In this document: positions 19,822-55,920 of the stretch, piece after piece
Layout of the letters: each line of letters opens with the position of its first letter
How positions within the stretch are numbered: the stretch's first letter is position 1
NCBI GenBank assembly: GCA_016707895.1
Contig: JADJGV010000034.1
Span: 885,625 to 941,544, forward strand
Reading direction: 5' to 3'
DNA length: 55,920 nt
DNA from: Myxococcales bacterium
Lineage (GTDB): Bacteria; Myxococcota_A; Polyangia; Haliangiales; Haliangiaceae
Notes under the pieces: model-generated
The model's input: only the letters and a program-made list of their open reading frames with translations
What the model was told of the DNA's origin: nothing
The model's database searches: none
Made by a program: the position numbers and the translations under genes

Positions 19822-19832
19822 GACAGGCCTCG

Positions 19833-29785: not shown

Positions 29786-29953
29786 ATGTCCGCCGCGGTC
29801 GCGAAGCGCCGCGCCGTGGTCACGGTGATCGTGCCCCCGACGCGCTGATCGCCGCGCTCGCGGAGATCGTCCTGCGCGCCACCGGCCAACCGCCCGCGCC
29901 GGGCCGCGCGCCGCCCCGGCGTGCCCGGACGCCGCGGACCCGAGATCGCGTAA
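29786..29953 (+). pseudogene. TetR-regulator remnant (internally deleted copy of the 3' half of the 26899-27591 tetR)
   Basis: Nucleotide similarity to tetR regions ~27224-27270 and ~27470-27590 (..AVAKRRAVV..IVLRATGQPPAPRRAPPRR..) joined with a frame change. Too short to be functional. Confidence 0.45.
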
Positions 29954-31600: not shown

Positions 31601-31730
31601 CCGACGCGGCGTCGGCAGGGCTTGGCGGCGCAGCGAGCTCGAGCCCGGCACCGCGGTCGACGCTGCCGCCCAGGTGCGCCTCGCCGAAGATCGTCGCAGC
31701 GTACGAGTCGGGGGCGGGTGTCGCCGCCGT

Positions 31731-32055
31731 CGTAGCGCTCGCCATCGCTGCCGAGCAATGGGTCGTAGTTCTCCGGGCAGGCGGTCGGCCGCGACTGGCA
31801 GACCCCGGCACCATCGGCGATGCCGCACCTGAACTCTACCGGGTAATCGCAGAACTCATCGCTGGGGCAGGTCCCGCCAGCGAGCCCACCGCATTGTTGT
31901 CCGCTGGCGTCGTCGTCGGCACTGTCCAGGTAGAAGTCACAGCCGCCGGCGCTCCACAGCATCGCCACCATCGCAAGACGGGTCCGCACGGACCACTGCG
32001 CGAGCAGGAAGCGTGCCGAGCGCGCGGTGCGCCGCGACGCGCTGGCCGAGGTCAT
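31731..32055 (-). pseudogene. 3'-truncated/diverged paralog of the Kazal-like small secreted protein
   Basis: Encodes ..MVAMLWSAGGCDFY..QQCGGLAGGTCPSDEFCDYPVEFRCGIADGAGVCQSRPTACPENYDPLLGSDGERYD, about 70% identical to 28374-28712. Homology stops after YD (NAC lost). The frame runs on without a stop into antisense of the 30008-31600 gene. Confidence 0.35.
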
Positions 32056-32181
32056 CCTGCGCGCCACGGGCCGGGCCGCCGCGTCGCGGTAATGGTTCGC
32101 GCCGGGGTCGTCGCGCAGGCTGCGTGGACGATGAGTTCAACCGCGAATGGACGCGCCGCACCGGGCGTTCTGGAGGCCAAG

Positions 32182-39089: not shown

Positions 39090-39317
39090 CGGTCGACCCT
39101 AGCGCGGCTCCCGCGCGCGCCGGATCGCGAACGCCGCGACGCAGGGGGCGACCGTGGATCGGTCACATCAGGCTCCCTTCCTACCGAGTGGCAGCCGATC
39201 GGCGCGGCCGCGCCAGCGCGTCGCCGCGCCGGTCACCGCGCGCGCAACCACGCCGCGTAGCGCGCGCGTCCATCGCCGCCTTCGAGCGCGGCGACGAGCA
39301 TCGCCCCCTCCTCGCAC

Positions 39318-39509
39318 ATGGCGACGAGCCCGACGAACATCCCCGCGGGCAGCACACTCTTTGTGGATGCCTACGACGAAGACATCGCGGAGGACGACCC
39401 CATCATGCGTTGCCAGTTCGCTCCCCTCACGGCCGACTTGCTGCACGTCGGCGAAGGGGTCTGCTCCGGTGCGATCGGTACGCTGACCGTCCGCTTCTCG
39501 ACCAACTGA
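39318..39509 (+). CDS. candidate small acidic protein (63 aa)
   Basis: ORF MATSPTNIPAGSTLFVDAYDEDIAEDDPIMRCQFAPLTADLLHVGEGVCSGAIGTLTVRFSTN lies in a 500-bp intergenic region. GC3 is about 85% although local GC is lower, so codon usage supports coding. No homology is inferable. Confidence 0.25.
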   Translation: MATSPTNIPAGSTLFVDAYDEDIAEDDPIMRCQFAPLTADLLHVGEGVCSGAIGTLTVRFSTN

Positions 39510-39595
39510 CGCATCGTCGACGGTCGATCTGGACCCGCCCAGTCGCAGCCACCCGGATCGGGGCTGATGCCGCGCGAGCCGGGCCGAGGGCGTCG

Positions 39596-42500
39596 TCAGC
39601 CCGGCGCCAGCAACGCGAACGCCTCGTAGAGGACGGCGGGCAGCGGCGCGTCGAGGTGCCAGGTGATGGCGATCGGTCGATCGCCGTCGTGGCTGCGGTA
39701 GGTCGCGCCGCCCAGGAAGACGTAGGGCTCGTCCTTCGCGGTCTGCACGAACAGGAAGAAGCGCCAGCCATTGGTCGCGCTGTCGAGGTACCGCCGCCCG
39801 GCGGCGCTGGCCACCCGCGTGCGACCTTGGGTCTCCCACAGGAACAGGTCGCGGCTGATCGCGCGATCGCGGTAGCTGGTGGTCGGTGAGAAGTTCCCGC
39901 TCGACTTGTCGAGCGTCACGAACAGGAGCTCACGGCGCGACGCGTCGAGCTTGAGGATGCCGGCCTGCGGCACGCTGATCTTGTCGCCGCTGGCGCGATC
40001 GCCGACCGCGGTGACGATCTCGTAGCGGCTGTAGCGCCGGTGCAGCGCCAGCGGCCAGTCGGCCTCGGGGTAGACGTCGCCCGCGAGCCCGGGCTTGTCC
40101 TCGAGCACGGCGGTCAGCTCGCGCAGCTCGGCCCGGACCGCCGGGCGCGCTCGGTACCAGTCGGCCACCTCCTCGGCCGCGCGCAGGACGCCGCGCTTCT
40201 GGAGCTGCGCGTCGAGCATGGCCAGGCGGCGCGCGTCGAGCGGCCCCGGGGGTGGCGCGCCGTCGTCGGTGAGCGCGCGGTAGCGGCGGAGCCGCGTCGG
40301 TTCGTCGACGTGGCACAGCCGGCCGAGCCCGCGGCTCGCGAGGTCGGCATCGACATCGGGGGCCGCGAGGCCGGCGGCGACCTGGACGTCGCGCCAGCCG
40401 GCGTCGCCGGTGTACACGTCATCGAGGGGGCGCCCGGTCTCGCGCAGGAACCGCGTCAGCGTGACCGGCGCGCCGTCCGGCTCGGCGGTCGCCCGCTCGT
40501 GCAGCTCGTGCAGCTCCCGCAGCTCGCGGCCGAGGCGCGCCACGCCTCGGCCCAGCGTGCGGCGCAGCGAGTCGAGCACCTGGTCGCGGGCCACTCGATC
40601 GAGCTCGAGCGCGCAGCCGCTGGGCAGGTGCGGGAAGCCGTGCTCGATGGCCTCGCGTAGCCGCGGCCGCGGCAGGCCGGTCAGCGTCGCCAGGATCGCG
40701 TCGTACCGGTACTCCTCGCGGTGCTGGCCGATGAAGTCGAGCACCAGGCACGCGGTCTTGCCCGGGAACAAGCGCAGGCCGCGGCCGAGCTGCTGCTGGA
40801 ACAAGGTCGCGCTGGCGGTCGGGCGGAGGAGCAACAGCACGTCGACGAACGGCAGGTCGACGCCCTCGTTGTACAGGTCGCACGTGAAGACCAGGTTCAC
40901 CTCGCGGTCACGGAGCCGGCGCCGCACGTCGTCGCGCAGCGCCGCGGGGCTGCCGCCATGGACCGCCACCGCCGGCACGCCGAGCGCGGTGGCCTGCGCG
41001 GCCATGTACTCGGCGTGCTCGACGCTCACGCAGAAGCCCAGCCCCCGCACCGCGCGCAGGTCGGCGACGCGGCGCGCGAGCTGCGCCACCACCAGGCGCG
41101 CCCGCGCCTCGTTGCCGGTGTAGAGCCCGGCCAGCGCCGCGGCGTCGTAGCCAGTGCGGGTCCAGCGCACGCGCCGCAGGTCGGTGCCGTCGGTCAGGCC
41201 GTAGTACTCGAACGGCGCGAGGAGCTGCTGCGCCAGCGCGTCGGGCAAGCGCAGCTCGGCGGCGATGCGATCGTCGAAGTCCGGCAGCAGCGACTGCCCG
41301 TCGCTGCGCTCGGGGGTGGCGGTGAGGCCGAGCAGCAGCTGCGGGCGCAGCGCCCGCAGGACCGCCTGGTACGAGGGCGCGGGCAGGTGATGGCACTCGT
41401 CGATCACCACGTAAGCGAAGTGCTCGGCGCCGAGCTGGTCGAGCAGGCGCCCCGCGCTCTGGATGGTCGCGAACACGTGGTCGCCGCGCGCGATCGTCGC
41501 GCCGCCGGCGATCAGCTCGCCGAACCCGCCATCGAGCAGGACCTCGCGGAACGTGTCGCGCGCCTGCTCGACGATCTCCACCCGGTGCGCCAGGTACAGG
41601 AGCCGCGGCGGCGCCGCGGGCGCCTGACGCGCGTAGTCGAACGCGGCGATGACGGTCTTGCCCGTACCGGTGGCGGCGACCACGAGGTTGCGCGTGTGGC
41701 CGCGCTCGACGCGCTCGGCGCGCAAGCGGTCGAGGATGATCTGCTGATACGGGTACGGCTGTGGCGCCAGGCGGCGCGGCGCGGGGCGCGGCGCGGCGTC
41801 GCGTTGGAGCGCGCCGGCCAGCTGGTCTCGGTGGGTCGGGTCCCGCGGATCGTAGCGCTGGAATTCCGGATCCTGCCAGAGGGTCTCGAAGGTGCCGGCG
41901 AAGTGGTCGATCACGTGCGGCAGGTCGCCGCTGGACACCTTCACCACCCACTCGTGGCCGGCGCCGAGCGCCGTGGCGGTGAGGTTGGCCGAACCGACGT
42001 ACGCCGTGGACAGGCCGTTGGCGCGGTGGAACAACCACGCCTTCGCGTGTAGCCGCGTCCGGCGCGTGTCGAACGACACCTTCACTTCGGCGCCGGGCAG
42101 CTCGGCCAGGCGGTGCACCGCCTCGACCTCGGTGGTGCCGGTGAAGGTCGTGGTCAGCACGCGCAGGCGGGTGCCGCTCGACGCCAGCGCCAGCTGTCCG
42201 AGCGCGTCGGCCAGCACGCGCACCCCGCCGATGGTGATGAACGCGACGATGACGTCGACCCGATCGGCGCTGGCGATCTCGCGACGCAGCTCGGAGGCCA
42301 GCCCGGGCTCGAGCGGGCCGCGGGTGAACAGGGTCGAGGCGGTGAACGTCGAGTCGGGACGCAGCGGCCTCGGCCCCGTCCCCACGGCCCACAGCTGGCG
42401 CGGCGGTGGCAGCAGCCGCTGCGCGCGGATGGGCCCGGCGTCGCCATCGTCGAACGCCAGGGTCGTCGCGATCTCCGCCAGCACGCGCTCGACCAGCGCC

Positions 42501-42691
42501 GAGCTCGCCGCGACGCGCGCGTGCTCGTCGAGCGCCGCCAGCGCCCGTCGCACCTCGGTGGCGACCAGCCGCGCGACCTCGCCCGGCAGCTGATCGGGCC
42601 GCAGGTCGCGCAGCTCGGCCACGGACTCGCCGAGCGCCTCGGCGAGCGCCTCCGTCAGCGGATGCTCGTACAGCCCTGGCGCCAGCGGCAT
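39596..42691 (-). CDS. PLD-family nuclease / SF2 (ResIII-type, DEAH) helicase / DUF3427-like C-terminal domain fusion protein (1031 aa)
   Basis: N-terminal PLD-like HxK motif (RLHAKAWLFHRANGLSTAYVGSANLT). Helicase motif I VVAATGTGKT, motif II VIDECHHL, motif III LGLTATPER, motif VI QQLGRGLR. About 300-aa C-terminal domain after the helicase. Start chosen at MPLAPGLYEHP (42691). Confidence 0.75.
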   Translation of the reverse strand: MPLAPGLYEHPLTEALAEALGESVAELRDLRPDQLPGEVARLVATEVRRALAALDEHARVAASSALVERVLAEIATTLAFDDGDAGPIRAQRLLPPPRQLWAVGTGPRPLRPDSTFTASTLFTRGPLEPGLASELRREIASADRVDVIVAFITIGGVRVLADALGQLALASSGTRLRVLTTTFTGTTEVEAVHRLAELPGAEVKVSFDTRRTRLHAKAWLFHRANGLSTAYVGSANLTATALGAGHEWVVKVSSGDLPHVIDHFAGTFETLWQDPEFQRYDPRDPTHRDQLAGALQRDAAPRPAPRRLAPQPYPYQQIILDRLRAERVERGHTRNLVVAATGTGKTVIAAFDYARQAPAAPPRLLYLAHRVEIVEQARDTFREVLLDGGFGELIAGGATIARGDHVFATIQSAGRLLDQLGAEHFAYVVIDECHHLPAPSYQAVLRALRPQLLLGLTATPERSDGQSLLPDFDDRIAAELRLPDALAQQLLAPFEYYGLTDGTDLRRVRWTRTGYDAAALAGLYTGNEARARLVVAQLARRVADLRAVRGLGFCVSVEHAEYMAAQATALGVPAVAVHGGSPAALRDDVRRRLRDREVNLVFTCDLYNEGVDLPFVDVLLLLRPTASATLFQQQLGRGLRLFPGKTACLVLDFIGQHREEYRYDAILATLTGLPRPRLREAIEHGFPHLPSGCALELDRVARDQVLDSLRRTLGRGVARLGRELRELHELHERATAEPDGAPVTLTRFLRETGRPLDDVYTGDAGWRDVQVAAGLAAPDVDADLASRGLGRLCHVDEPTRLRRYRALTDDGAPPPGPLDARRLAMLDAQLQKRGVLRAAEEVADWYRARPAVRAELRELTAVLEDKPGLAGDVYPEADWPLALHRRYSRYEIVTAVGDRASGDKISVPQAGILKLDASRRELLFVTLDKSSGNFSPTTSYRDRAISRDLFLWETQGRTRVASAAGRRYLDSATNGWRFFLFVQTAKDEPYVFLGGATYRSHDGDRPIAITWHLDAPLPAVLYEAFALLAPG

Positions 42692-42898
42692 CGCCCGATG
42701 ATAGGAGCTCGCGGCGCTGCCGTCAGGGGTCGGCGCGCCTGTTGGCGCAGCGTCTGCGGTGATGGACGCCGGCGGCGACAGGGCGCGCGCTGCATGCTCA
42801 GGCCGTCGGGCCGGCTTGTTGCCACCGCTGGCAGCCGATCGGAATGGCGGCGCCACCCGCGCCGCATCACCCGGCATGGGGCTGCCACCCGCGTGGCG

Positions 42899-44206
42899 TC
42901 AACCGCGCTCACCCATCCAGTCTTCGGGCAACCCGGCGCGCAGCCGCGTGGCCAGCGCGCGGAGGCCGTCGATCGCGTCGGCCACGTCGTCATCGGCGCG
43001 CGCGGAGAGCACCTCGCCGAAGGTGAAGCCGATCGCGTCCGGCGCCCGTGGCGGTGGACCCGGGGCGCTCGCGCCGCGCCGATGGGCCAGGTCGCTGGTG
43101 GTCGATCGCAGCGCCGCGGCCAGGTACGCGTGGGACTCGCGGCGGTCCTCGGCCAGCGCCGCCGCGAGCTCGCGGTGGCACCAGCGCTGATCGATCGCCG
43201 CGAGCAGCGACGCCATCTCGCACACCGCGATCGGCACGTCACTCCGCAGCGCGCGGCGCACCAGCGGCAGCGCGCGGTCGGGCAGCCGCTCGAGGGCGAG
43301 GGTCGCGAAGTCGGCGAGGAGCGGGTGCCCGCCGTAGCCCGCGACCCGCGAGAGCCCGGCCCAGGCGTCGAAGCGCTCGCGCACGAGCTCGCGCTCGAGG
43401 TCGCGTTCGAGCAGGTAGGCGCAGGCCTGGTACGGCGAGAACGGATGATCGACCGCGACGTCGGCGCGGCGGAGCGCCTCGGCGACCGCCGCCGTCACGT
43501 CGACGTCGGGCCGCGCGCGCAAGAGCTCGATGGCGCGACCCTCGTGCCAGTCCTTACGGCCGAACAGCGGCCGGCACAGGCCCACGGCCTCCTCGGCGGT
43601 GGTCCCGCGCAGGGCCAGGGGTAGCAGGTCGCCGGGGCGCTCCGACGCGTGGACCCTCATCGACAACCACGCCCGGTGGGCGGCGACGTGGGCCTCGTCA
43701 CCGCCCGGTTCGATGATGGCCAGCCAGCGCGCCCGGCCGTCCGCGGTGTCGAGCTCGGCGGCGACCTCGCCGGCGCGCGCCTCGAGCTCCGGCGCCAGCG
43801 TGACGTGGTTCTTGTACTTCGTCGTGTACCGCACCAGCCCGACGGCGGCGAGCTCGTGGATCCCATCAACGATCACGTCGTCCGATGGGCGCCAGCGCCA
43901 GAGGCGCGGCTCGGCGATGCGGGTCGGCGACGTCGCGAGCGACGCGACCCGGGCCGTGAAGAACCACGTGTCGATCACCTCGCCGGTCTCGGTCAGGAAG
44001 TCGGCGTCGAGCAGCTCGCCGTCGGGGCCGGTCAAGCACAGGCCGATGCCGTGGCGGCGGTAGGTCCAGCCTGCATGCCCCGGCAGGTCGCCGTCGTCGT
44101 CGTCGCGGTCGAGGGCCGCGCGCGCGACCGCGTGGTGCCAGCGCTGGCGCTCGCGCTGCACGAGGAGCGCGACGACCAGCCAGCTCAGGTGCGGTGGGCC
44201 CCACAT
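42899..44206 (-). CDS. hypothetical protein (435 aa), immediately upstream of the nuclease-helicase gene
   Basis: Intact ORF with diverse composition. Acidic run DRDDDDGD near the N-terminus. No motif recognised. Confidence 0.45.
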   Translation of the reverse strand: MWGPPHLSWLVVALLVQRERQRWHHAVARAALDRDDDDGDLPGHAGWTYRRHGIGLCLTGPDGELLDADFLTETGEVIDTWFFTARVASLATSPTRIAEPRLWRWRPSDDVIVDGIHELAAVGLVRYTTKYKNHVTLAPELEARAGEVAAELDTADGRARWLAIIEPGGDEAHVAAHRAWLSMRVHASERPGDLLPLALRGTTAEEAVGLCRPLFGRKDWHEGRAIELLRARPDVDVTAAVAEALRRADVAVDHPFSPYQACAYLLERDLERELVRERFDAWAGLSRVAGYGGHPLLADFATLALERLPDRALPLVRRALRSDVPIAVCEMASLLAAIDQRWCHRELAAALAEDRRESHAYLAAALRSTTSDLAHRRGASAPGPPPRAPDAIGFTFGEVLSARADDDVADAIDGLRALATRLRAGLPEDWMGERG

Positions 44207-44333
44207 CGCGAGAGCATACGGCCAGTGGTGTCCCGTCAGGCCGCATGACCGGCCTCGCCGCGATCACCGTCCCGGCCGTCGCCGCGCCCAGCGCCGGGCA
44301 GATCGAATCGGCCGGCGAGGCGTCGACACGGAC

Positions 44334-44765
44334 ATGCGGTGTTCGACGGTCCGGTTGCGTGCGCTCGGCCTCGCGCTCCTGGTCCTCGGCTGCCGGGCCA
44401 CCGGCCCGCCGTCGCGCGCGGTCCCCGCACCGGCGAGCGAGGCGGCCGTGGCGGTAGCCGGGGCACCGGCCGGGACGCCGGTCGATCCATGGCAGGCGTG
44501 CGCGGTCGACGACGACTGTGCCGTGGTGGAGATCGACCGCGGCGCGTGCGACCTCTGCGCGAACACGTACGCGGTCGCGCGCGGGCGAGCCGACGAGGCG
44601 CGCGCGCGCGCCGCGCTGACAGAGCCGGTCGAGGTCTGCACGGATCGCGATCACTCGTGCCCGGCGGCGACCGCCGCCTGCGTCGACGGCGCCTGCGCGC
44701 TGCAGGTCCCCGCCGACCCGCCACGCGCGGCGCGCCGCTGGTTCAACCCGCTGCCGGCCCGCTGA
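44334..44765 (+). CDS. small Cys-rich lipoprotein (143 aa)
   Basis: MRCSTVRLRALGLALLVLGC is a lipobox signal. 10 Cys in the mature part (CAVDDDCAVVEIDRGACDLC...CVDGAC). Lies 40 bp upstream of CotH. Confidence 0.45.
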   Translation: MRCSTVRLRALGLALLVLGCRATGPPSRAVPAPASEAAVAVAGAPAGTPVDPWQACAVDDDCAVVEIDRGACDLCANTYAVARGRADEARARAALTEPVEVCTDRDHSCPAATAACVDGACALQVPADPPRAARRWFNPLPAR

Positions 44766-44805
44766 CCTTCGGCTGGTCGCGGCCGCCGCTCGTGTACGAT
44801 GGAGA

Positions 44806-46642
44806 GATGCGTCCTCGCCGCGGCTCGACACGATCAGGCGCTGGCGCGCTCGCGGCCATGGCGGCCGCGACCGCGGTGGTGGCGTGCAGCGGCGGGGCGC
44901 CGAACACGCCGGACGGGGCTCCGGACACGGCGGCCGACGCGGTCGCGGGCAGCTGCGGCGACGGGGTGGTCGACCCGGGCGAGGCGTGCGACGACGGCCG
45001 CAACGACGCCCTGGGCGGTGGCTGCCTGCCGGGGTGCCAGGCGAGCGACGACAGCGACCAGGTGTTCGCCCGCCCGCTGGTCGAGGTGGCGCTGACCTTG
45101 CCGGCGTCCGAGTGGGAGCTGCTGCGCCACGAGCGCAAGCCCCGCCACGTCATCTTCGGCGGCGCTGACTGCCGCAACGTCAGCTTGCCGAGCCCGTACC
45201 AGTGGCACGCGGCCGAGGTCACGATCGACGGCGTCGCGCTCGGCGCGGTCGGCCTGCGCAAGAAGGGGCACATCGGGTCGCAGACCGACCTGCGGCCGGC
45301 TCTCAAGCTCGACTTCGATCGCGTCTCGCCGGGCGGCCGCTACCACGGCCTCGAGGGGGTGGCGCTCAACAACGACCGGAGCGACCCCTCGCATGCGCGT
45401 GCCTGCGTCAGCTACCAGGTGTTCCGCGCTGCCGGCGTCCCGGCGCCGCGCTGCACGCTGGCCCACGTGACGGTCAACGGCGAGGATCAGGGCGTGTACG
45501 GCCTGGTCGAGGAGATCGACGCGCACTTCCTGGCCCGGCAGTTCGCGCAACCCGGCGGCAACCTGTACGAGGGCACCGCCAACGACTTCCGGCCCGACGC
45601 CATCGGCGGGTTCGATCGCGAGACCAACCAAGGCGACCCGTCGCGGGCCGACCTCGACGCCGTGCTGGCGGCGCTGGACGCGGCCGACGCCGAGGTCGAG
45701 GCGGCGCTGGCGGCGGTGATCGATCTCGATCAGTTCTACCGGTTCTGGGCGACCGAGATCGTGGTGTGGCACCGCGACGGCTACAGCGGCAACGCCAACA
45801 ACTTCTACCTGTACGCCGACCCGGCCCGGGGCGGCCGGATGGTGTTCCTGCCGTGGGGCACCGACGCTGCCCTCTCGGTCGACAACCGACCCGAGGTGCC
45901 CGACTCGGTGCTGGCGTTCTCGGCGCTCAGCCGGCGCCTGATCCTGCTCGCCAGCGGACGCGCTCGGCTGAACGCCGAGGTCGACGCCGTGCTGACCGAG
46001 GCGTGGCGCCCGGCCGAGCTGATGGCGGACGTCGATCGCATCGGCCAGGTCGCCGATCCGGTGCTGCTGCCGGCCCGCGCCGCCGAGCGCGCGAGCGTGG
46101 CCGCGCAGATCAAGGCGATGATCCTCGGTCGCGCCGACGCCATCACCGCCGCCCGCGCCGCGGGCGATGCGTGGAGCCTGCCGCTGCGTACCCTGCCGTG
46201 TCGCGTCGAGGCCGAGGCCATCACGGGCACAGTCACCACCAGCTGGGACACCCTCGGGCAGACCACCTACGCCACCGGCGCGCTCACGCTGACGGTGGCC
46301 GGGCAGCCGGTCGTCGCCGTGCGGTCGGGCGCCCGGGCCGGCCTGGCCGGCGTGGACGGCCGGATCCTGGCCACCCTCGACAGCGCGACCCGGCGCTACG
46401 CCATCACCCTCAACTTCCCCGACCCCGAGTGGTTCGATCGCTTCGACGTCGTCGGCCCGCACGACATCGCCAGCCCGCCGTTGACGATCACGGTGATCGA
46501 GTCCGACCTGACCGTGACCCCCGCGGCCGTGCTGCGCCGGCTCGAGCTCGGCGGCGGGACCTGGACCTTCTCGGCCGCCAGCCGCATGGCAGGCGCGCCG
46601 ATCGTCGCCAGCTTCACCAGCACGCTGTACCTCCCGCTGTGA
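44806..46642 (+). CDS. CotH-family (atypical kinase fold) lipoprotein
   Basis: Signal ...AAMAAATAVVACSGG (lipobox). LRKKGHIGS, LKLDFDR, NLYEGT and NNFYLYADPARGGRMVFLPWGTDAALS resemble CotH kinase-family signatures. Confidence 0.55.
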
Positions 46643-46702
46643 TCTCCCGTGCGATGCAGACCGTTCGAACGAGCGGCGCGACGGGCAGTGGGGACGCGAC
46701 GA

Positions 46703-48985: not shown

Positions 48986-49095
48986 GGCGCGGGAGGTTGG
49001 CAGCGGCCGGCCACGCGGGGAATGACGCCGCGCTTTCACCGACGTGTGCCGTCGCGCACATCGCGTCGTCCCGCCGAGATCTTCGACGTCGTGAA

Positions 49096-49317
49096 TCACC
49101 GCCGTGGCGTGAGGTGCGCGAGTGCCTTGCGGATGGCCGTGCGGACCTCGCGGTCGGGCTCGAGCGCTCGCCGCCGCTTGAGCGCGGCGCGACTCGGCGC
49201 GGGGCCGAGGTCGATCATCGCGACGACCGTGGCGCACCTGACGCGCTGGTCGGCGTGGTCGAGCAGCGCCTCCAGGGTGGCGCGGGCCGCGGCGCCGCCG
49301 CGGGCGCCGAGGGCCAT
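49096..49317 (-). CDS. small HEAT-repeat-like protein or fragment (73 aa)
   Basis: LLDHADQRVRCATVVAMIDLG...EPDREVRTAIRKAL resembles two PBS-lyase/HEAT-like repeats. Confidence 0.3.
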   Translation of the reverse strand: MALGARGGAAARATLEALLDHADQRVRCATVVAMIDLGPAPSRAALKRRRALEPDREVRTAIRKALAHLTPRR

Positions 49318-49354
49318 CGCGGCGGCCTGGACCGTCGGCGCGTCGTTCTTGGGG

Positions 49355-49392
49355 CCCGGCGATCCGATCGGCGCCCGGCGATCCGATCGGCT
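49355..49392. repeat. tandem direct repeat, 2 x 19 bp (CCCGGCGATCCGATCGGCG/T) followed by CTGCGACTCG
   Basis: Two copies read directly from the sequence. Related to the 54.7 kb repeat (CGATCCGrTyGGCTGCGACTCG shared). Confidence 0.75.
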
Positions 49393-49409
49393 GCGACTCG
49401 TCTCGCAGG

Positions 49410-50096
49410 GTGGCGGGCACTCGGTCGCCGACGGGCGGTGGCTTACCGATCGGGTGTGGGCCGTCGATCGAGGTCCGCCTCAGCCTGTGCGCGTCGGTCG
49501 CCGACCACGAGCTGGCGGTCGACCTGGCGACGGCGTTGGCGGAGCAAGCCGAACCGCTGATCGCCTGGGAGGACGACGCGGGGCCGATCTCGCCGGCGGC
49601 GCTCCAGGCGCGACGTGCGGCCTGGGTCGCCGAACAGGCCGCGTGGGCGCCCGCGATCGCGGCGTCGATGGTCGATGCCGAGGGGCAGACCTCGCTGATG
49701 GCCGGCCCGCGCCGCGCGTTCGCGCTCGGCCCGCGGTTCCTGGCGGCGCTGCGCGCCAGCGGCGCGCCGCTCGAGGACGCGCTGCTGGCGGCGATGGTGA
49801 CGCTGCAAGGTCTCGACGAGTACTACCCCGCGATGGCGCTCGGCCTCAGCGACGGCGCGACCACGACCACGCACGCGGTCTGGGGGCCGCGCAGCGCGTA
49901 CTTGTTCCACCGCGTCGACACGCTGGTGCTGCGCGACGACGACGAGCGGATCGTGATCCCGTGGGCGTGCGGCCCCGAGGTCGCCGGCGACGGCTGGTGC
50001 TGGCGCGACGAGGACCACGCGACGGTCGAACGCATGGACGCCGATGGCTGGCGCGCTCGGCTGGCGCGCGCGCGCCGGGTGGCGCTGCCCGCGTGA
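49410..50096 (+). CDS. hypothetical protein (228 aa; start uncertain)
   Basis: ORF with W/Y/D/E-containing composition. Tandem repeat and GCAGCCGATCGG-type motif lie immediately upstream. Confidence 0.35.
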   Translation: MAGTRSPTGGGLPIGCGPSIEVRLSLCASVADHELAVDLATALAEQAEPLIAWEDDAGPISPAALQARRAAWVAEQAAWAPAIAASMVDAEGQTSLMAGPRRAFALGPRFLAALRASGAPLEDALLAAMVTLQGLDEYYPAMALGLSDGATTTTHAVWGPRSAYLFHRVDTLVLRDDDERIVIPWACGPEVAGDGWCWRDEDHATVERMDADGWRARLARARRVALPA

Positions 50097-50114
50097 GCCG
50101 CGCGAGGCGCGTGG

Positions 50115-50474
50115 CTACCGGAACGCCAGGTCGAGCCCGGCGAACATGCGGATGTCATCAGCGGCTGAGCGTGCGTGCCCGCGGACGTGCCCCGAGGCAT
50201 CGGTGAAGCCCGTGCGGATGATGTTCTCGTCGCCGGGACTCACCTTGCCAAACAGCCTCGCCAGGTGGCCGAACCCGAGGATGGCGTTGCCGCGGACGTA
50301 CTCGTCGCGGTGGCCGCTGAGCGCCACGCACATGCGATGCACAACCTCGTAGTCCGCTTCGTTGAGCGCGGCGGCGACGATGCCGGTCTGCAGGTACGCG
50401 ACGTCGTCACGCGCGATGGCCGCCCAGAGCGCCTGCGGCCCGTCGTACGTCGGGTCGTCGTAGACGTCGGTCAT
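50115..50474 (-). CDS. hypothetical protein (119 aa)
   Basis: MTDVYDDPTYDGPQALWAAIARDD... A genuine-looking 3' portion of a longer artefactual ORF. ATG at 50474. Confidence 0.4.
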   Translation of the reverse strand: MTDVYDDPTYDGPQALWAAIARDDVAYLQTGIVAAALNEADYEVVHRMCVALSGHRDEYVRGNAILGFGHLARLFGKVSPGDENIIRTGFTDASGHVRGHARSAADDIRMFAGLDLAFR

Positions 50475-50530
50475 GCGGCGTAGCCTAGCCTGGGGCCGCC
50501 GTGGCAGCCGATCGGATCGCCGGCTCCGCG

Positions 50531-51338
50531 TCAGCCGCCGGCCGCCCACGCGTCGTCGCCGACCGCCTCGCTCACCACAGCGATCGCCCGCGGCGCGCCC
50601 ACCAGGCGCGGGGGGGCGCCGGTCACCGTGACGCGCAGGCCGGGCGCGGCGCCGAGCACGATGGCGCCGGCGGGGCCGAGCTCGTCGAGCACGTGGGCGT
50701 CGCGCTCGGGGGACGCCCCTTCCCAGCGGCAGACCAGCACGGGCGTCGTCAGGTGCGGGTGCCCCGCCGGTGCGGCCAGGGCGCAGCGCAACGTGAGCGT
50801 CGTGGCCCGGGCCTGTGGCAGCCGGCCCTCGGCGAGCGTCGGGCACACCACGGCGTCGGCTGTCACGTCGACCACGACCGCGTCGCCGTCGGCGCGCCAG
50901 CGCCCGGCGAACCCCGCCTGTTCCCGGAACTGGTCGTCGGTGTGGACCCGCGGCCCGTCGTTCGTCATCGCGTAGCGCCAGCCGCGACAGGCCTGCGCGG
51001 TGCCGTCGTCGGCCAGCGTCAGCGCCAGCGAGGCCGCGGAGGTCTCGCGCACGAGCTGGCGCGCGTGGGTGCCGCTGAGGTCGCGGTGGATCACGGTCGC
51101 GTAGCGGCCGGGGACGAACGGCACGCGCCCGCAGCCCCGCGCCAAGCTCGATGGTCGCGCCGGTGGGCGTGGCGACCGGTGCTGCGTCGGCGGCCAGCGC
51201 TTGCGCGTTCGTGGTGCCAGGCGAAGGGCGCGCGGGTGGCATCTCGGGCGGCCTCCCGCACGCGGCGCTGCCGGCGAGCGCGGCCAGCACCGCGGCGGTT
51301 GGAGCAGCGCATCGCTCAGTCGGGGAACGCACTGACAT
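50531..51338 (-). pseudogene. lipoprotein gene interrupted by a frameshift
   Basis: The lipobox signal MSVRSPTERCAAPTAAVLAALAGSAAC (from 51338) is in one frame. The ~200-aa body (VPFVPGRYATVIHRDLSGTHARQLV...) continues in another frame from about 51130. Both flanking frames are arginine/proline-rich junk. Confidence 0.35.
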
Positions 51339-52052
51339 ATCGGTGGTCGAGGACGGTACCCCAATCGATCGGTGCGGCGGCGGGGCTCGGTCACCGGCGC
51401 AGCGCCTTGCGGGGCCGGGCTCCTCGTCGGGCGCGGCGACCGGCGAGCGGCGCCCACGCGAAAGGACGACGTGGCGATCGGCGGCGATGGCGATCGCGCC
51501 GCGCGGGCGACCCGCTCCTCCGGACCACCGCCAGGCGCGGCGCCCGACGCCGACCAGCGCTTCGCCCACCCGTCGCGCGAGCCCCGCCGATCGGATCGCG
51601 GTCCGCGGCCGCGCGCCGGCTGGACGCAGCCGCGATCGTCGCAGGTGTCGCGCGCTAGCCGGGAATCCCATTGGTGGAGCTTCCTGCCAACTGGAGCGGG
51701 GGGCGGTCGGCCCCCCGTTCCTCACCGCCTGTCGGCGGCGGGAGGCCCGCGGGGGGAGCGGCGAGCAGGCGGGCGAAGAGGAGCAGCGCGTCACCCTGGA
51801 TGCACGCAAGGCCGATGTCGCCGGCGGCGAACTCGCCGATGACCGGCGTGGACGTGTCGAGACGCCGGCGCCGCCCGTCCTCGAACTCGACGGTGATCGT
51901 GCGATCGATCCCGAGCCGGCCCGGGCCGTCATGGTCGTGATCGTCGTGGACGACGTAGGTGCCGCCGCCGACGTCGACGACGTACACGAGGTGACGCGTA
52001 ATCGGCACGCCGGACGCACGCCAGGCGACCCGCAGGTCGAAGAAGAGCGGGA

Positions 52053-52436
52053 TCAGGTCATCATCACCGGCGCCAGCGCGGCCAGCGTGAACCACGGCCC
52101 GCCCAACGCCCAGCAGCCCACGATGCTCGCCAGCCCGACGCCCATCCTGACGACGCAGCGCGCGTAGAACCGCGCGCCCAGCGGCGGCCGCATGATCGGG
52201 GCCTCCATGGCGAGGTTCAGGCGCGGATCCTGGCGCGCCAGCGCGAAGCGCGGCGCGTGGGCCGACGCGGGTGCTGGCGGGGCGGTCGCCATCGCTGACA
52301 ACCGCTCGCCGCGTCCGCTCACCACGATCGCGACCGGCAGCGACCCCGTTCCGACGCCGTGCATCGCGCGCCCGCAGTTCGGACAGGTCGCGCCCGGCGT
52401 CTCGAGGATCGTGGCGTCGCAGTGCGGACAATTCAT
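52053..52436 (-). CDS. small zinc-ribbon protein with C-terminal transmembrane segment (127 aa)
   Basis: MNCPHCDATILETPGATCPNCGRAMHG is a CPxC...CPxC zinc ribbon. C-terminal hydrophobic stretch VRMGVGLASIVGCWALGGPWFTLAALAPVMM. Confidence 0.4.
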   Translation of the reverse strand: MNCPHCDATILETPGATCPNCGRAMHGVGTGSLPVAIVVSGRGERLSAMATAPPAPASAHAPRFALARQDPRLNLAMEAPIMRPPLGARFYARCVVRMGVGLASIVGCWALGGPWFTLAALAPVMMT

Positions 52437-52563
52437 CGATGCGCCTGATGCTACCCCGTCGGCGCGTACGCGCGCGGCACGCCGACGCTCCCCGGAGGCC
52501 GGGTGCAGCTCCGTCCGGTCAGGGTCGAGGGCGGCGCGCATCCACGCGTGGCCTTCGACGCGC

Positions 52564-53868
52564 TCAGGTGCGCCGCGCGTCGCGCGCGTCGCGCGCGGCC
52601 CGGCGGCGGGCGTACCCGCGGTAGAGCCACAGGAGCAGCATCGCGCCCAGCACCGAGGCGAGGAAGCCCGACGTCTCGTTCGTGCGATACCAGCCGCCGG
52701 CGACGCCGATGAGGCGCGCGGTCGCCGCGCCGAGCACGCCGAGCAGCGACGTGAGCAACAGGCCAGGGGATCGGCGACGTAGATCTCGTCCAGGCCGCCT
52801 TCGCGCCGCGCCGTGAACACCGTCGCGGCGCCGTCGTCGATCCACTCGGTGATCGAGTACATGTCTTGAAACGTCCCGGGCGGGTTCAGCATCGTCGAGG
52901 TCCAGCTCGGGGCCTCGGCGTAGCCTAGGTCCCAGCGGGGCCACTCGCCGAGCGGCGTTGCCTGCAGGCGCACGCTGCGGCTCGCGAGGTTCCCCGCGAT
53001 GCGGCGCCAGGTGCCGAGGTGCCAGTCGGGGCTCGCCGATTCAGGGACCGCGATGGGCGCCAGCGAAGGAAGCGCACGCCAGAACGTCGCCAGGTCGCCC
53101 GTGGTGGTCGTCGTCATCACGTAGGCGACCACCTCGCCGTCGAGATCGAACCCGACGCCGAACACATCGGGATCGACGCCCGCGATCGCGGGCGAGTTCA
53201 CGCGCACCGCTGGTCCTGGTACCGACCGCTCACGTCGACCAGGTAGGCATCATCCAGGGGTGGTCGAACTGTCCCGCGAACGCGACGAGCGTTCCCGCCG
53301 AGTTCATCGCCACCTGGGGCTGGGTCTGCAGTGTGAGCCCGGGCGGGATCAGCGAGATCGGTGGTAGCGGGACGCCGTCGTTGATCGCCACCCAGAGGAC
53401 ATCATGAAACGCCACGAACAGCATGCCGTGGCCGTCTGGGGTGAAGGGGTGAGGTGTTGTTGGGTTCGAACCCGGCGTGCCCAGATCCACCGGCGCGGAC
53501 GTCGGCCGGCGTAGATCGAGGCCCCAGGCGTTGCTCGAGGTGAACAACGTCGGGCGACACGCGGCGAAGCTGCCGTCCGGGGCGATCCAAGCGCGCTCGC
53601 AGCTCCCGGTCGGATAGGGCGGGTTGATCGCCCGGGTCGACGCGGTCCCGGCCGCGTCGAACGACGTGACGTAGCCGCCGCGGTTGGGGCCCAGCGCGAC
53701 GAAGTGATCGCCGGCGGTGCTCCAGGCGCCGTAGACTGTATCGAAGGCCCCGGCACATGGATCGGCGGCTGCGCCGGCGGGATCTGCGCGAGGTCGTACA
53801 CCGCGACCCCAGGCGACGGGCTCTCCGTCGGCCAGGCCAGCCGCGGTCGGCTCGCCGCCATCCGCCAC
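52564..53868 (-). pseudogene. beta-propeller-like secreted protein broken into three frames (in-frame stop plus frameshift)
   Basis: Three consecutive ORF pieces: 53868-53230 (IAPDGSFAA..FTPDGHGMLFVA), 53207-~52790 (MRVNSPAIAGVDPDVFGVGFDLDGEVVAYVMT...) and ~52790-52564 (two TM helices). Each continues the previous one in a different frame. Confidence 0.35.
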
Positions 53869-54553
53869 CCATCGGTGACCTGCGAGGTCTCGTCCGCGAT
53901 CACGGTTGGCGGTGCAAGCGGGAGGCCGTCAGGTCGGTTGCCATGAGCACGTGACGCTGGCCCGCCGACTGCGCGACGACGAGGTGTCGTCGATCCGGCG
54001 TCGGGCCGGCGTGCGACCAGAGGAGCGCATCGTGGATCACCCTGACGTGGACGGGAACCGCCGGACAGTATGCGGCGTCGAGCGGGACGACCATGGTCGA
54101 CCGGACGGCCGTGACCTCGTTGATATGCCAGCCAGTAGCGGGGCGCACCACTGCAAGAGACGACGATCGGCGGCGTCGTGTCGCTCACCACGCCCGTCGC
54201 GCCGCTCCGCACCGTGCAGGTCTGTACCGGCGCGGTCGGCTGCGATGCCACGCTGACCGAGTAGCTCGCCCCCGCGGGGAGCGGGAACGTGAAGCGCCCG
54301 TCAGCGCCCGGCACCGACGGTGGTCGTGCCGTCCGTCAGCGTCAGGCCCGAGCCGGCGAGGCCCGGACCTCGCCGGCGAGCATCGCCATCCCGCGTCGAC
54401 CGGCGTGTCGACGGGCGCGCCATCGATGACCGCGTCGGGAGCATCGAGCGTCGGCGCCGCGTCGACGCCTGGGTCGCCGTGGCCGCCACAGGCCACGAGG
54501 CTCAGCGCCACAGTGCAGCGCATGACGTAGTGAGTGAGATCCCGCGAGGCCAC
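53349..54553 (-). pseudogene. lipoprotein gene with multiple frameshifts
   Basis: The lipobox signal MRCTVALSLVACGG (54185-54553 frame) is followed by Ig-like segments GSGLTLTDGTTTVGAGR and ADGRFTFPLPAGASYSVSVASQPTAPVQTCTVRSG in two further frames. Confidence 0.3.
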
Positions 54554-54722
54554 GGCGCGACTATCGCACGGTGCTGCCGCGTGGCGCTGCCGCTCGGTGG
54601 ATCGCGAACCCGTGCCCAGCGAGCGGGCAGCCCCTCAGGTCGGCGGCTCACCCCTCCGGGGTGTCGCGGCGCGACGCGTGCGCCGGGCGGACGTCGAGCG
54701 TGTCAGCCGCCGGTTGGCCCCC

Positions 54723-54797
54723 GGCGCCCGATCCGGTTGGCTGCGACTCGAACCGTCGGCGGCGCCCGATCCGGTTGGCTGCGACTCGAACCGTCGG
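54723..54797. repeat. tandem direct repeat, 2 x 37 bp (GGCGCCCGATCCGGTTGGCTGCGACTCGAACCGTCGG)
   Basis: Two near-identical copies separated by 1 nt, followed at 54798 by TGGCAGTCGATCGG. Upstream of the frameshifted metallopeptidase gene. Confidence 0.8.
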
Positions 54798-54961
54798 TGG
54801 CAGTCGATCGGGCGACGGGACCTCGCGCGGTGACGGCCCGGCCGCGCCGACTGGGATCTTCGATCGGTCGCGACTCGATGTGCTGACCGCGGCCGAGCGG
54901 GATCGTGCCGGTCGACGCGCCCGGCCACCCAACCGCCGCTGCGGCGGTCTACGCTCGCGCC

Positions 54962-55920
54962 ATGAGGCTGCCCCACGTCGTCGCGTTTCTGCTCGCCGCG
55001 GTGAGCGTGGCGTATCCTGGGCACCGGGCCGCGCGCGCGCCGGTCGGACCGCGTTGGTCACCCGCGCCGAGCCGGCGCCGGACCTCGGCCCGCCGGCCAC
55101 CACAGGCGGCAGGTCCCCGGCGGAGAAGTTCGCCGCCGGCGAGCTCGTGTTCGGCGTCTACACCATCCACGACGCCGCGCACTGCGGGCGCTCGCGAGCT
55201 GGGACGCGACCGCGGCCGCGCTCGGCCTCGACGGCGCGCGCGTGCTCGATCGTGAGCTCACGATCGGCGACACCGCCGTCGCGGTCGGCGCGATGGCCGA
55301 CGGCGTCGTCGGCGATCTCACGCCCATCATGACCGCGCTGCGGGACGCCGGCGGCAGCGACATCGACGGCCACCACGTCTGCGTCGTGCCCGCGACCGGG
55401 GTGGGGCGTCGCCCTGTCGACGTCCAACGGCTTCATCGCGTTCGAGCCCGCGGCGATCATCCAGATCAACGAGCTCGTGCCCGACGCCGAACGCAGCATG
55501 TACAGCGTCGTCGTCGTGTTCGCGCACGAGTTCGCGCACCAGCTCCAGTACTGGTACGGCAACCCGTTCGAGGGCGACAGAGCATGCGGCGGACCGAGCT
55601 CGCGGCCGACTGCATGGGCTCGGCCTTCGTCGCGATGACCCAGCCCAGCGGGTGGATCATGGAACAGGTCCACAAAGGTGTCGTCGGCGCGCTCCAAGCC
55701 TACGCCGATCTCAAGTTCAGGAGCGTCATGCATCACGGCACCCGCGTCGATCGCGCGCAGCTCGCCCACGCCGGCGTCGAGCTGGTGACGTCGCGGCGGG
55801 CCAGCAGCAGCCGCCCGATCTCGCGACGATCAAGCGCACATGCGACGCCGCCGTCGAGGCCTGGGACGCGTCGCTGACGCTGACGCCGCCGGATCAGCTC
55901 TGGGGTGGCACCGAGCCGTG
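54962..55920 (+). pseudogene. YpfJ-like neutral zinc metallopeptidase (PF04228-type HExxH...ELxADC) with at least 3 frameshifts; 3' end outside window
   Basis: Signal MRLPHVVAFLLAAVSVA. The pieces ..FAAGELVFGVYTIHDAA.. / LRALASWDATAAALG.. / ..VVVVFAHEFAHQLQYWYGNPFEGD / RTELAADCMGSAFVAMTQPSGW.. / ..IKRTCDAAVEAWDASL fall in three different frames. Confidence 0.4.

Follow-up and report, generated by a model that had tools for sequence, protein, structure and literature searches.

A recurrent upstream motif in an uncultured Myxococcota genome is probably the core of a dispersed intergenic repeat

Background

A short, near-identical word recurs ahead of several neighbouring genes in the MAG of an uncultured member of the Myxococcota, and the question is whether it marks a transcription factor site or promoter element shared by a small regulon, or a miniature dispersed repeat, the two readings that the original prediction placed side by side. 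Much work has been devoted to short dispersed repeats of Proteobacteria (REP/REPIN, NIME, Correia) and mycobacteria (MIRU). The literature searched holds no description of a short dispersed repeat of such kind for the Myxococcota. Here we examined the word in a stretch of 55,920 nucleotides (the window) and in DNA of related genomes.

Results

All the words listed in the original prediction were recovered, namely the 14-mer TGGCAGCCGATCGG at 39189, 42829 and 50502 (plus strand), CCGATCGGCTGC at 49383 and the variant TGGCAGTCGATCGG at 54798. The full unit around the motif GGCAGCCGATCGG is an oriented 22-mer, G-M-T-CCGATCGGCTGC-S-AC-Y-CGG, in which an 8-bp palindrome (core CCGATCGG) is followed by an asymmetric tail. 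With up to one mismatch, the 13-mer GGCAGCCGATCGG has six matches in the window against 0.70 expected, a count that none of 100 shuffles reached, and the 18-mer CCGATCGGCTGCSACTCG with up to three mismatches has nine against 1.09 expected. A 22-nt PWM with a cut-off of at least 12 bits gave 11 matches in the window versus 0.8 in shuffles, and the bare palindrome is weakly enriched (10 matches versus 4.8). Across 53 copies, 16 of the 22 positions are at least 85% conserved and two states are tolerated at M2, S16 and Y19; the information content of the 22-mer is much above that of a typical operator. The signal of linked substitutions among copies is weak, and tandem and orthologous copies account for part of it.

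The window carries nine full and two half copies (Table 1). They occupy six intergenic gaps, all between 39 and 55 kb, in agreement with the predicted recurrence in at least five intergenic regions. The PWM found no copy in the first 39 kb, despite at least nine gaps of at least 100 nt there, and no strong copy in the coding DNA of the window. A one-mismatch 13-mer within the helicase coding sequence (42585..42597, plus strand) fell short of 12 bits with the PWM; it matches by chance and does not belong to the family.

Table 1. Copies, partial copies and tandem or strain-variable segments of the repeat in the window
Feature	Sequence	Position	Strand	PWM score (bits)	Remarks
Full copy A	GCGCCGATCGGCTGCCACTCGG	39184..39205	-	27.2	Exact 18-mer
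Degenerate copy	GATCCGGGTGGCTGCGACTGGG	39538..39559	-	17.9	12-mer match, 1 mismatch
Full copy B	ATTCCGATCGGCTGCCAGCGGT	42824..42845	-	23.1	
Tandem duplication of the 5' half of the unit, 19 nt x 2	GCCCGGCGATCCGATCGGC	49354..49391	+		TRF: period 19, 2.0 copies, 100% matches, score 76
Copy D (best copy)	GATCCGATCGGCTGCGACTCGT	49380..49401	+	32.7	
Full copy C	GATCCGATCGGCTGCCACGGCG	50497..50518	-	24.7	Aligned with two L245 paralog promoters
Half copy	GATCCGATCGGC only	51586..51597	-		Gap between 236-aa and 260-aa genes; 12-mer count
3' half-unit	CGCTGCCGCTCGG	54585..54597	+		Left edge of the strain-variable segment
Strain-variable 241-bp segment		54610..54850	.		Three repeat copies inside; blastn breakpoints
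Tandem array, 38 nt x 2.1		54722..54801	+		TRF score 153, 97% matches
Copy E	CGCCCGATCGACTGCCACCGAC (TGGCAGTCGATCGG of the original prediction)	54793..54814	-	13.9	
Copy G	TCTTCGATCGGTCGCGACTCGA	54857..54878	+	22.2	

The predicted distances to gene starts (30-140 bp) proved roughly right. The 14-mers of copies A, B and C lie 100, 138 and 28 nt before the starts of the CarboxypepD_reg/PDZ gene (GTG 39089), the nuclease-helicase gene (ATG 42691) and the 119-aa gene (ATG 50474), respectively, and the motif at 49383 lies 16 nt before the 228-aa gene (GTG 49410). Copy A as a whole is 94 nt upstream of its gene and shares the gap with the degenerate copy, which follows the helicase stop codon by 37 nt. 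Copy B is placed between the stop of a 435-aa gene (42899) and the helicase ATG, a start that a 1031-aa database protein of 100% identity confirms, and the -35/-10 boxes of the helicase (promoter-like site 42726-42698) follow about 100 nt downstream of the copy. Copy D occupies the divergent gap between the 228-aa gene and a 73-aa HEAT_2 gene (start 49317, minus strand), and is identical in strain contigs L001, L002, L004, L307 and L375. The 236-aa gene ends 16 nt before copy C, and the 119-aa gene, which is leaderless, has its TAGGCT box 9 nt beyond the copy. Copy G precedes the TACGCT box of the HEXXH gene (ATG 54962) by about 70 nt; by alignment it is present in L001 and missing from L245.

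TRF confirmed both of the tandem repeats that had been predicted. The longer one contains two GGTT-variant copies, GATCCGGTTGGCTGCGACTCGA, at 54730-54751 and 54768-54789 (26.9 bits each), and has a related counterpart in L310. Copy E is inverted relative to this adjacent array and orthologous to L245 3717-3738, its region showing 90% identity over 50 nt with L245 3695-3742.

In 87 kb of lineage DNA, 38 copies were counted, none of them convincingly within a coding sequence; the evidence as a whole comes from about 90 kb of such DNA, some of it chosen through the motif itself. Among the close relatives, L245 was fetched through a protein and is therefore not motif-selected, and its 11.9 kb carry 10 copies scoring 16 bits or more, with nearly every gap occupied. 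L340 has 12 copies in 8.2 kb, L316 has five in 10.9 kb and L310 has seven in 1 kb. The unit fills most intergenic gaps of close relatives, and the genes beside it are unrelated to one another and mostly without a Pfam family. Suggestive of common descent, an extended unit of 42 nt was found in three separate gaps of L245, its copies being 74-88% identical. The regions in which copies cluster are alike in gene content (HEAT-like small proteins, eCIS_core and HEXXH proteins, and secreted repeat proteins), and 80 kb around helicase orthologs (76-92% identity) contain no copy of at least 18 bits. No regulator gene was found in the motif-rich loci, nor any transposase or recombinase in the approximately 90 kb of lineage DNA. 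The unit is almost exclusively intergenic and patchy, with many copies in ORFan-rich, strain-variable regions and none in the regions next to them, and it is arranged as singlets, direct tandem arrays of whole or partial units, and occasional inverted pairs.

Between orthologous gaps of close genomes, the copy number of arrays changes and whole modules appear or disappear. The 241-bp segment of the window, with its three copies, is absent from the 99%-identical strain contig L001, and a 280-bp segment with one copy is present in L001-L003 and missing from the window. Upstream of the HEXXH gene, the window carries modules E and G, L245 only E and L001 only G. At the 119-aa gene, the motif abuts a conserved promoter block in the window, is 70 nt further off in the first L245 paralog and is missing from the second. 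In both of these promoters the proximal 30-65 nt are kept, and repeat modules are gained or lost. The gap upstream of CotH has copies in L316 and none in the window. The 19-nt unit at one and the same promoter is present once in L245 and four times in L340, and other arrays were seen in L264 (34 nt x 2) and L340 (47 nt x 3). Array periods are irregular (19, 38, 34, 47, 22 and 9 nt) and mostly not multiples of three, and half-units also stand alone. At the indel boundaries (54609/54851, 49458 and 52766) there is only microhomology of 1-4 nt and no TIRs, and the junctions fall at no constant position within the unit. Neither TIR nor TSD was found.

By a hand count based partly on crude gene calls, approximately 26 of 33 copies face the 5' end of the next gene, including all nine in the window, and the co-directional gaps number about 10 in sense versus three in antisense. 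Copies are also present in convergent 3'-3' gaps (L316 5011, L340 2239 and L245 2618), and five of the 10 L245 copies face the 3' end of a gene. Some copies are as close as 9 nt to a -10-like box or start codon, and others are more than 130 nt away. With a -10-like box only 6-7 nt ahead of the ATG, several of the flanked genes appear leaderless. Folding of 10 copies or arrays gave neither a stable nor a shared structure (z-scores from -1.72 to +0.76). A known RNA family is rejected by the lack of any Rfam covariance-model match in 39000-55920 at E up to 1; over the whole window, only a single tRNA reaches the gathering score.

Discussion

Our assessment, at a probability of about 60%, is that this uncultured Myxococcota lineage has a dispersed intergenic repeat family of its own, non-coding and prone to indels, and that the motif forms its core. 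Because it litters the gaps of one narrow lineage and is gained and lost between close strains, it resembles a genomic repeat of the REP/NIME type and not a control site for a small set of genes. The part of the original prediction that proposed a miniature dispersed repeat is accordingly supported, with copies beside unrelated genes, in both orientations, in convergent gaps, and variable in number and presence among strains. Its other part, the small-regulon site or promoter element, is not favoured, since there is no fixed distance to a start or -10 box and orthologs of the flanked genes often come without the motif. Local multiplication of the repeat would proceed by replication slippage or unequal exchange, and its spread from gap to gap by ectopic recombination, gene conversion or a putative sequence-specific enzyme, with selection presumably keeping genes free of it. 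The main consequence would be indel polymorphism and recombination breakpoints in accessory regions, and any effect on neighbouring promoters may be secondary.

The closest analogues are the dRS3/NTS-NIME arrays of Neisseria, MIRU-VNTR and REP, and the unit belongs to none of these. The dRS3/NTS-NIME elements are short intergenic repeats, rare in genes and near variable genes, with strain-dynamic arrays (PMC11893778, PMC1797815). Like these 20-28 nt, high-copy elements, which have a palindromic core with asymmetric flanks that give orientation, the 22-mer is oriented, rare inside genes, dynamic and clustered non-randomly by variable surface or secreted-protein genes, with arrays whose length and repeat number depend on the strain. 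However, the Neisseria unit is a hairpin (ATTCCC-N8-GGGAAT), whereas the 22-mer is a loopless 8-bp palindrome without a significant fold, and no hairpin was seen in the 10 folded copies or arrays. There is also no sequence similarity, the phylum is different, the spacers between 22-mer copies are not recognisable RS families, and the lineage DNA yielded neither a cognate Ssn nuclease nor a phage recombinase. REPs are short, extragenic, many-copy and lineage-specific repeats, sometimes tandem or clustered and of strain-variable presence (PMC3116915), all of which is also true of the 22-mer. But REPs are imperfect palindromes that replicate as a hairpin-forming inverted doublet, whereas the 22-mer mostly stands alone or in direct tandem, and the 10 folds show no hairpin. 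REP/REPIN elements are mobilised by RAYT (Y1) transposases, whose gene the repeats flank, and the loci analysed here contain no transposase. The likeness to MIRU-VNTR lies in dispersed intergenic loci, short strain-variable tandem arrays, a high-GC genome and an orientation that tends to follow the flanking genes. MIRUs, in the description attributed to Supply et al., are reportedly units of 46-101 bp with small ORFs, in frame with the flanking genes, that overlap the stop and start codons of their neighbours; here, by contrast, the core is 22 nt, the periods of 9-47 nt are irregular and mostly not multiples of three, and many loci hold a single copy. We also rejected a MITE, which would be a unit of 50-500 bp with TIRs and a target-site duplication (the indel boundaries show no TIRs and only microhomology), and a CRISPR array of identical, regularly spaced repeats with unique spacers of similar length, as copies lie in separate gaps with genes between them and the tandem arrays have no spacers.

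A doubtful alternative, which broadens the main reading of the original prediction, is that the 22-mer is bound by a lineage-specific DNA-binding regulator. Acting globally or on particular islands, this regulator would control the ORFan, secreted-protein and effector-like genes of these variable regions, with tandem and partial units giving cooperative binding. Transcription factor operators are likewise short conserved words, sometimes in tandem, upstream of several genes. The copies are intergenic and mostly upstream of and facing a gene start, an orientation bias that would also fit a cis-regulatory role, and they cluster in regions of similar gene content. Their very high conservation with three two-state positions is as expected of a protein contact pattern, and 16 near-invariant positions across genomes differing by 6-18% in coding DNA suggest recognition by some protein. 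Yet the unit is not confined to promoters, as the copies in convergent gaps or facing 3' ends attest, its neighbours are unrelated and its spacing to -10 boxes is loose. The site is lost or gained at orthologous promoters even at 99% identity and is absent around the helicase orthologs, there are half-units as well as VNTR arrays of irregular period (9-47 nt), the 22-mer carries far more information than operators usually do, and the loci contain no regulator gene. For an operator or promoter element of a small regulon in particular, the 3'-3' gap copies, the unconstrained promoter distance and the orthologous promoters that do not conserve the site led us to reject it. Sigma-54 promoters have an invariant GG at -24 and GC at -12 (TGGCAC-N5-TTGC) and face the gene. 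The misfit to this consensus that had been predicted is borne out, because, on the TGGCAG strand, about half of the 53 copies have C in place of the first G of the GG (position 16: C 25, G 24), the -12 position reads TCGG[A/C] and not TTGC, and TGGCAG is on the strand opposite to the gene in most window copies. The sense bias relative to the downstream gene might instead reflect an RNA-level 5'-UTR or intercistronic element affecting mRNA processing, stability or translation, and in one subfamily (L311, L315, L245 7935/7965 and window copy A) the unit is followed by the purine-rich, SD-like GGAGAAGGGG. We consider this very improbable, given the folding and Rfam results, the roughly one fifth of copies that are antisense or in 3'-3' gaps, and the leaderless-looking flanked genes, which would put the unit upstream of the transcript.

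By analogy with dRS3/NTS in Neisseria, which a phage recombinase and SsnA recognise, the 22-mer might also be a putative oriented recognition site of a dedicated recombinase or nuclease. Such an enzyme would mark variable islands and influence how they recombine or exchange cassettes; we judge this improbable. Orientation would be conferred by the palindromic core and asymmetric flank, and rarity in genes, proximity to variable genes and strain-dynamic arrays are as described for NTS/dRS3-NIME (PMC11893778, PMC1797815). Copies are also near synteny breakpoints and duplication junctions: the L316 5011 copy comes after the end of homology to window 29727, and the L316 10634/10657 copies precede a duplicated 70-nt CotH 3' end. 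In addition, inverted copies (49380, plus; 50497, minus) bracket a module of two genes, the 228-aa and 119-aa genes. However, no hairpin is possible, unlike in NTS, no candidate enzyme gene was found in the lineage DNA, indel junctions show only short microhomology at no constant position in the unit, and spacer DNA would in any case be expected to harbour breakpoints as well as repeats. There is a similarly slim chance that the family would be a hairpin-less myxobacterial counterpart of the NTS-SsnA/dRS3-recombinase systems, marking ORFan and effector-like islands and controlling the exchange, duplication and loss of modules bracketed by the unit, such as that of the 228-aa and 119-aa genes.

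Conclusions

As a dispersed repeat family, the unit marks the most plastic genome parts of a myxobacterium from activated sludge, those in which near-identical strains show a shuffling of ORFan and effector-like genes. It offers a VNTR handle for strain typing and a marker for variable islands in MAGs, and it cautions annotators that a word recurring upstream of several neighbouring genes is not necessarily the signature of a regulon. If a cognate protein exists, the family would provide a tractable case of repeat-guided recombination outside Neisseria.

Occurrence and anatomy of the repeat

In this G+C-rich window (72-77%), the 13-mer GGCAGCCGATCGG occurs exactly on the + strand at 39190, 42830 and 50503, and with one mismatch at 49383 (-), 54799 (+) and 42585 (+). 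These six matches at up to one mismatch compare with 0.70 expected, and none of 100 shuffles reached six. The match at 42585 is a chance match because it lies within a gene and falls below the threshold of the profile scan described below. The bare palindrome CCGATCGG is only mildly enriched in the window (10 matches against 4.8), and the longer word CCGATCGGCTGCSACTCG, common to the copies on the opposite strand, gave nine matches at up to three mismatches against 1.09 expected. TRF identified tandem repeats of 19 nt x 2 at 49354-49391 and of 38 nt x 2.1 at 54722-54801. The motif positions and descriptions of the original prediction were thus correct, as were both of its tandem repeats. Enriched k-mers were mostly codon-bias words and added little on the repeat.

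Aligning the window copies with copies from relatives defined an oriented 22-mer unit with the consensus G-M-T-C-C-G-A-T-C-G-G-C-T-G-C-S-A-C-Y-C-G-G. Across 53 copies, 16 positions are at least 85% conserved and three (M2, S16 and Y19) are two-state. A profile of 17 copies, applied at a threshold of at least 12 bits, found 11 sites in the window compared with 0.8 in shuffles. The non-coding sites are listed in the table; the two in coding DNA (4213 and 14684) are the weakest, at 14 bits. All real copies fall within 39-55 kb, and the first 39 kb hold none despite at least nine gaps of at least 100 nt. The repeat is a genuine feature with solid statistical support. Inverted pairs are rare (54768+/54793- and 49380+/50497-), the latter pair bracketing the module of the 228-aa and 119-aa genes. 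A linked-substitution test returned a single clear pair, positions 7 and 9 (the GGTT variant), a signal largely accounted for by tandem or orthologous copies.

Repeat copies and genes of the window, with copy-bearing loci of relatives
Feature	Position or accession	Strand	Remark
Repeat copy	39184	-	profile scan, non-coding
Repeat copy	39538	-	profile scan, non-coding
Repeat copy	42824	-	profile scan, non-coding
Repeat copy	49380	+	profile scan, non-coding
Repeat copy	50497	-	profile scan, non-coding
Repeat copy	54730	+	profile scan, non-coding
Repeat copy	54768	+	profile scan, non-coding
Repeat copy	54793	-	profile scan, non-coding
Repeat copy	54857	+	profile scan, non-coding
Half-units	51586-51597 and 54585-54597		
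Secreted CarboxypepD_reg x7 + PDZ protein	36138-39089	-	
PLD-nuclease / ResIII-helicase / DUF3427 protein	39596-42691	-	
435-aa protein	42899-44206	-	
CotH	44339-46642	+	
Kelch protein	46703-48985	-	
73-aa HEAT_2 protein	49096-49317	-	
228-aa protein	49410-50096	+	
119-aa protein	50115-50474	-	
236-aa protein	50531-51241	-	
ORFans	beyond the 236-aa gene	-	
HEXXH protein	from 54962	+	
Single-base indels (examples)	51127, 52053, 53225, 53253, 53446, 53470, 54115, 54314, 54362, 54389		
Locus L245	JAEUJY010000160.1, GCA_016794525.1		11.9 kb; 10 copies at 16 bits or more, in nearly every gap
Locus L340			8.2 kb; 12 copies; ~82% nt identity to window in one alignable gene
Locus L316			10.9 kb; 5 copies; CotH 93% aa identity
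Locus L310			1 kb; 7 copies
Loci L264, L311, L315, L322, L344			2 copies each
Locus L375			via 119-aa homolog (92% aa); the window's own two copies

Gene content of the window

The gene map of the repeat region draws on codon-position G+C, on Pfam and on genes called in identical metagenome contigs. The helicase start is confirmed by a 100%-identical 1031-aa database protein on a 1.74-Mb contig of a 'Myxococcales bacterium' MAG, and close homologs of the 119-aa protein are likewise found in Myxococcales MAGs. The sole RNA gene detected in the window is tRNA-Ser (anticodon TGA) at 19832-19904 (-). In several genes, -10-like boxes (TAGGCT, TACGCT, TATCAT and TACCAT) end 6-7 nt before the ATG or GTG with no Shine-Dalgarno sequence (window 50475-50490, 54945-54961 and 42692-42726; 2262-2275 and 6220-6235 in the relative's contig L245), which suggests that leaderless transcripts are common in this organism.

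Other repetition in the window is of a different kind. In-frame tandem repeats of 156-nt FG-GAP units (21262-21954, within a 676-aa protein) and of 144/285-nt Kelch-blade units (46878-47524, within the Kelch protein) are ordinary protein repeats with no relation to the motif. Paralogous segments with 62-86% identity (27463-27559 / 29827-29923 / 32012-32108; 27675-27750 / 32173-32248; and, inverted, 28467-28652 versus 31729-31914) adjoin a TetR gene (26899-27591) and point to a locally duplicated gene family at 27-32 kb. Neither a motif copy nor an ORF showing the codon-position G+C pattern of the organism occurs in a 1.4-kb stretch (16166-17596).

Distribution among relatives

Six short-read contigs from activated-sludge-type samples (L001-L006) carry the window locus at >99% identity. 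The L245 contig, whose shared genes are 92-94% identical to the window at the nucleotide level, was retrieved through the 119-aa protein and is therefore unbiased for the motif. L340, L316, L310, L264, L311, L315, L322 and L344 were found by scanning metagenomes with the 18-mer CCGATCGGCTGCSACTCG and are thus motif-selected; the matches of that scan were for the most part due to chance, with about one in ten loci being a contig of the lineage with several copies. The same 18-mer gave scattered single chance matches in many phyla in the genome-contig collection, with the G-M-T prefix in none of the 117 matches listed, and a 14-mer scan of viral contigs gave chance matches alone among the matches listed.

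No copies were found in 80 kb around helicase orthologs of 92%, 78% and 76% identity (L370-L373; 73-74% G+C), on the contig with a 72%-identical 119-aa homolog, or at the loci of 46-52%-identical homologs, and a search of these motif-free relatives for an alternative repeat found none. Because copies are dense in close relatives and absent from these ortholog loci, the repeat family is restricted to one narrow lineage, with patchy occurrence within its genomes.

Arrays, strain turnover and rearrangement

The arrays are built from complete or incomplete units, and their irregular periods are not divisible by three. The window has periods of 19 and 38 nt, L264 has 34 nt x 2 and L340 has 47 nt x 3, and sub-repeats of 22 and 17 nt occur in L315 and L272. 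At an orthologous promoter, L245 has one copy of the 19-nt unit GGCTGCGACTCGGTCGCGC and L340 has four. Three different gaps of L245 share a 42-nt extended form of the unit at 74-88% identity, which suggests copying rather than convergence.

Turnover is also seen between nearly identical strains. A 241-bp segment with three copies (54610-54850) differs between 99%-identical strains, and a 280-bp segment that runs from the end of a 614-aa gene through an intergenic repeat copy into the start of a 93-aa Transgly_assoc gene is present in L001 (2703-2982), L002 and L003 and missing from the window at 52766, either by real deletion or by assembly collapse. At the indel junctions microhomology amounts to 1-4 nt, and there are neither terminal inverted repeats nor target-site duplications. 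Many further differences between window 51000-55920 and six independent short-read contigs of the same population are single-base indels; these account for the broken frames beyond 51 kb (the 236-aa, 260-aa, 614-aa and HEXXH genes) and look like homopolymer-type long-read assembly error rather than pseudogenes. The strain contig L307 carries 1,427 extra bases (130-1556) at window 49458, including two minus-strand ORFs, one lipoprotein-like. Because of these bases and a longer in-frame N-terminus of its 228-aa protein, the window gene is probably an N-terminally truncated deletion derivative.

In L316, positions 4013-4976 and 7587-9452 match window 28765-29727 and 44778-46642 at 93-94% nucleotide identity, placing the SDR gene (window 28779-29672) just 2.6 kb from CotH, compared with 15 kb in the window, and a second copy of the final 70 nt of CotH lies 1.2 kb downstream (10686-10755). 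Gene order among close relatives is thus extensively rearranged. One repeat copy follows the end of homology in L316 and two more precede the duplicated CotH 3' end; spacer DNA is where both breakpoints and repeats lie, so such an association with synteny breaks is suggestive only.

The 119-aa HEAT-like ORFan is itself duplicated in L245 (6236-6595 and 10888-11247). In distant relatives its homolog closes a contractile-injection-system operon with CIS_tube, Phage_GPD, PAAR and gp25 members, directly after an eCIS_core-domain protein (L248, 7848-10393), and eCIS_core proteins are also encoded in the motif-rich L316 (5498-7330) and in L370 (5846-7690). The arrangement may represent an effector with an immunity or accessory protein.

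Nature of the repeat

The original prediction allowed either a transcription-factor site or promoter element shared by a small regulon, or a miniature dispersed repeat. The latter is borne out by the intergenic and patchy occurrence, the tandem arrays and the gain and loss between strains, and we put the probability at about 0.6 that the unit is a bacterial dispersed intergenic repeat that is lineage-specific, non-hairpin, oriented and prone to VNTR behaviour. The small-regulon reading did not hold up, given copies in 3'-3' gaps, variable spacing, turnover at orthologous promoters and unrelated neighbours. Copies lie in convergent 3'-3' gaps at L316 5011, L340 2239 and L245 2618, and five of the ten copies in L245 are directed at the 3' end of the following gene. 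The repeat lies from 9 nt to >130 nt upstream of the -10-like box (TAGGCT, TACGCT or TATCAT), and for the helicase ~100 nt beyond the -35. At orthologous promoters the proximal 30-65 nt are kept and the repeat is not: in the window it abuts the conserved block of the 119-aa gene, in L245 paralog 1 it is 70 nt further off, and in paralog 2 there is none, and for the HEXXH gene the window has both module E (54793..54814 (-)) and module G (54857..54878 (+)), L245 has E alone and L001 has G alone. The genes beside copies are unrelated, the majority without a Pfam family, and motif-rich loci contain no regulator gene.

Orientation and conservation keep two other explanations alive. About 26/33 copies point to the next gene's 5' end, and in co-directional gaps sense exceeds antisense by roughly 10 gaps to 3, figures from a hand count in which gene calls are partly crude and tandem copies are not independent. 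Because of this bias, and because 16 positions stay near-invariant while coding DNA differs by 6-18%, some protein probably recognises the 22-mer word. It could be a regulatory protein, for which the unit would serve as binding site, a reading that we consider rather unlikely. The same two features would suit the recognition site of an enzyme, which we hold to be improbable. A role at the RNA level is very improbable, since ten copies or arrays gave folding z-scores of -1.72 to +0.76 with no common structure and Rfam had no match to the repeat even at E up to 1.

Several specific candidates were rejected. As originally predicted, the unit is not a sigma-54 promoter: in half of the copies the variable S replaces the obligatory GG with CG, and TTGC is missing. 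A sigma-70 -35 element was rejected because of the spacing and, again, the variable S. A phage-type (T7-like) promoter, prompted by CGACTC in a 22-nt asymmetric word, is contradicted by the tandem copies, the copies in 3'-3' gaps, and the lack of a single-subunit RNA polymerase gene and of phage genes nearby. Xer/dif-like sites, integron attC and CRISPR were dismissed for want of matching arms or regular spacing, and a HIP1- or DUS-like genome-wide word because neither coding DNA nor 39 kb of this window contains the unit.

Among known systems, MIRU-VNTR loci are likewise dispersed and tandem with variable copy number, but their units are longer and bear ORFs. The closest description in the literature is that of the Neisseria dRS3/NTS and NIME repeats, in which a short oriented repeat with a palindromic core has ~2% of its copies within genes, clusters by variable surface-protein genes and forms arrays that change between strains (PMC11893778, PMC1797815). 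The myxobacterial unit shares the oriented palindromic core, rarity in genes, clustering and array dynamics, but differs from dRS3/NTS in having no hairpin and no identified enzyme. REP/REPIN elements need hairpin-forming inverted doublets and a RAYT gene (PMC3116915), and the myxobacterial unit lacks such doublets. The literature searched held no myxobacterial equivalent of the repeat and no relevant paper on CCGATCGG as a word.

The repeat is concentrated in strain-variable, ORFan-rich regions of this uncultured myxobacterium. It would propagate there by slippage and ectopic recombination, or through an enzyme, and indels and rearrangements would be the consequence.
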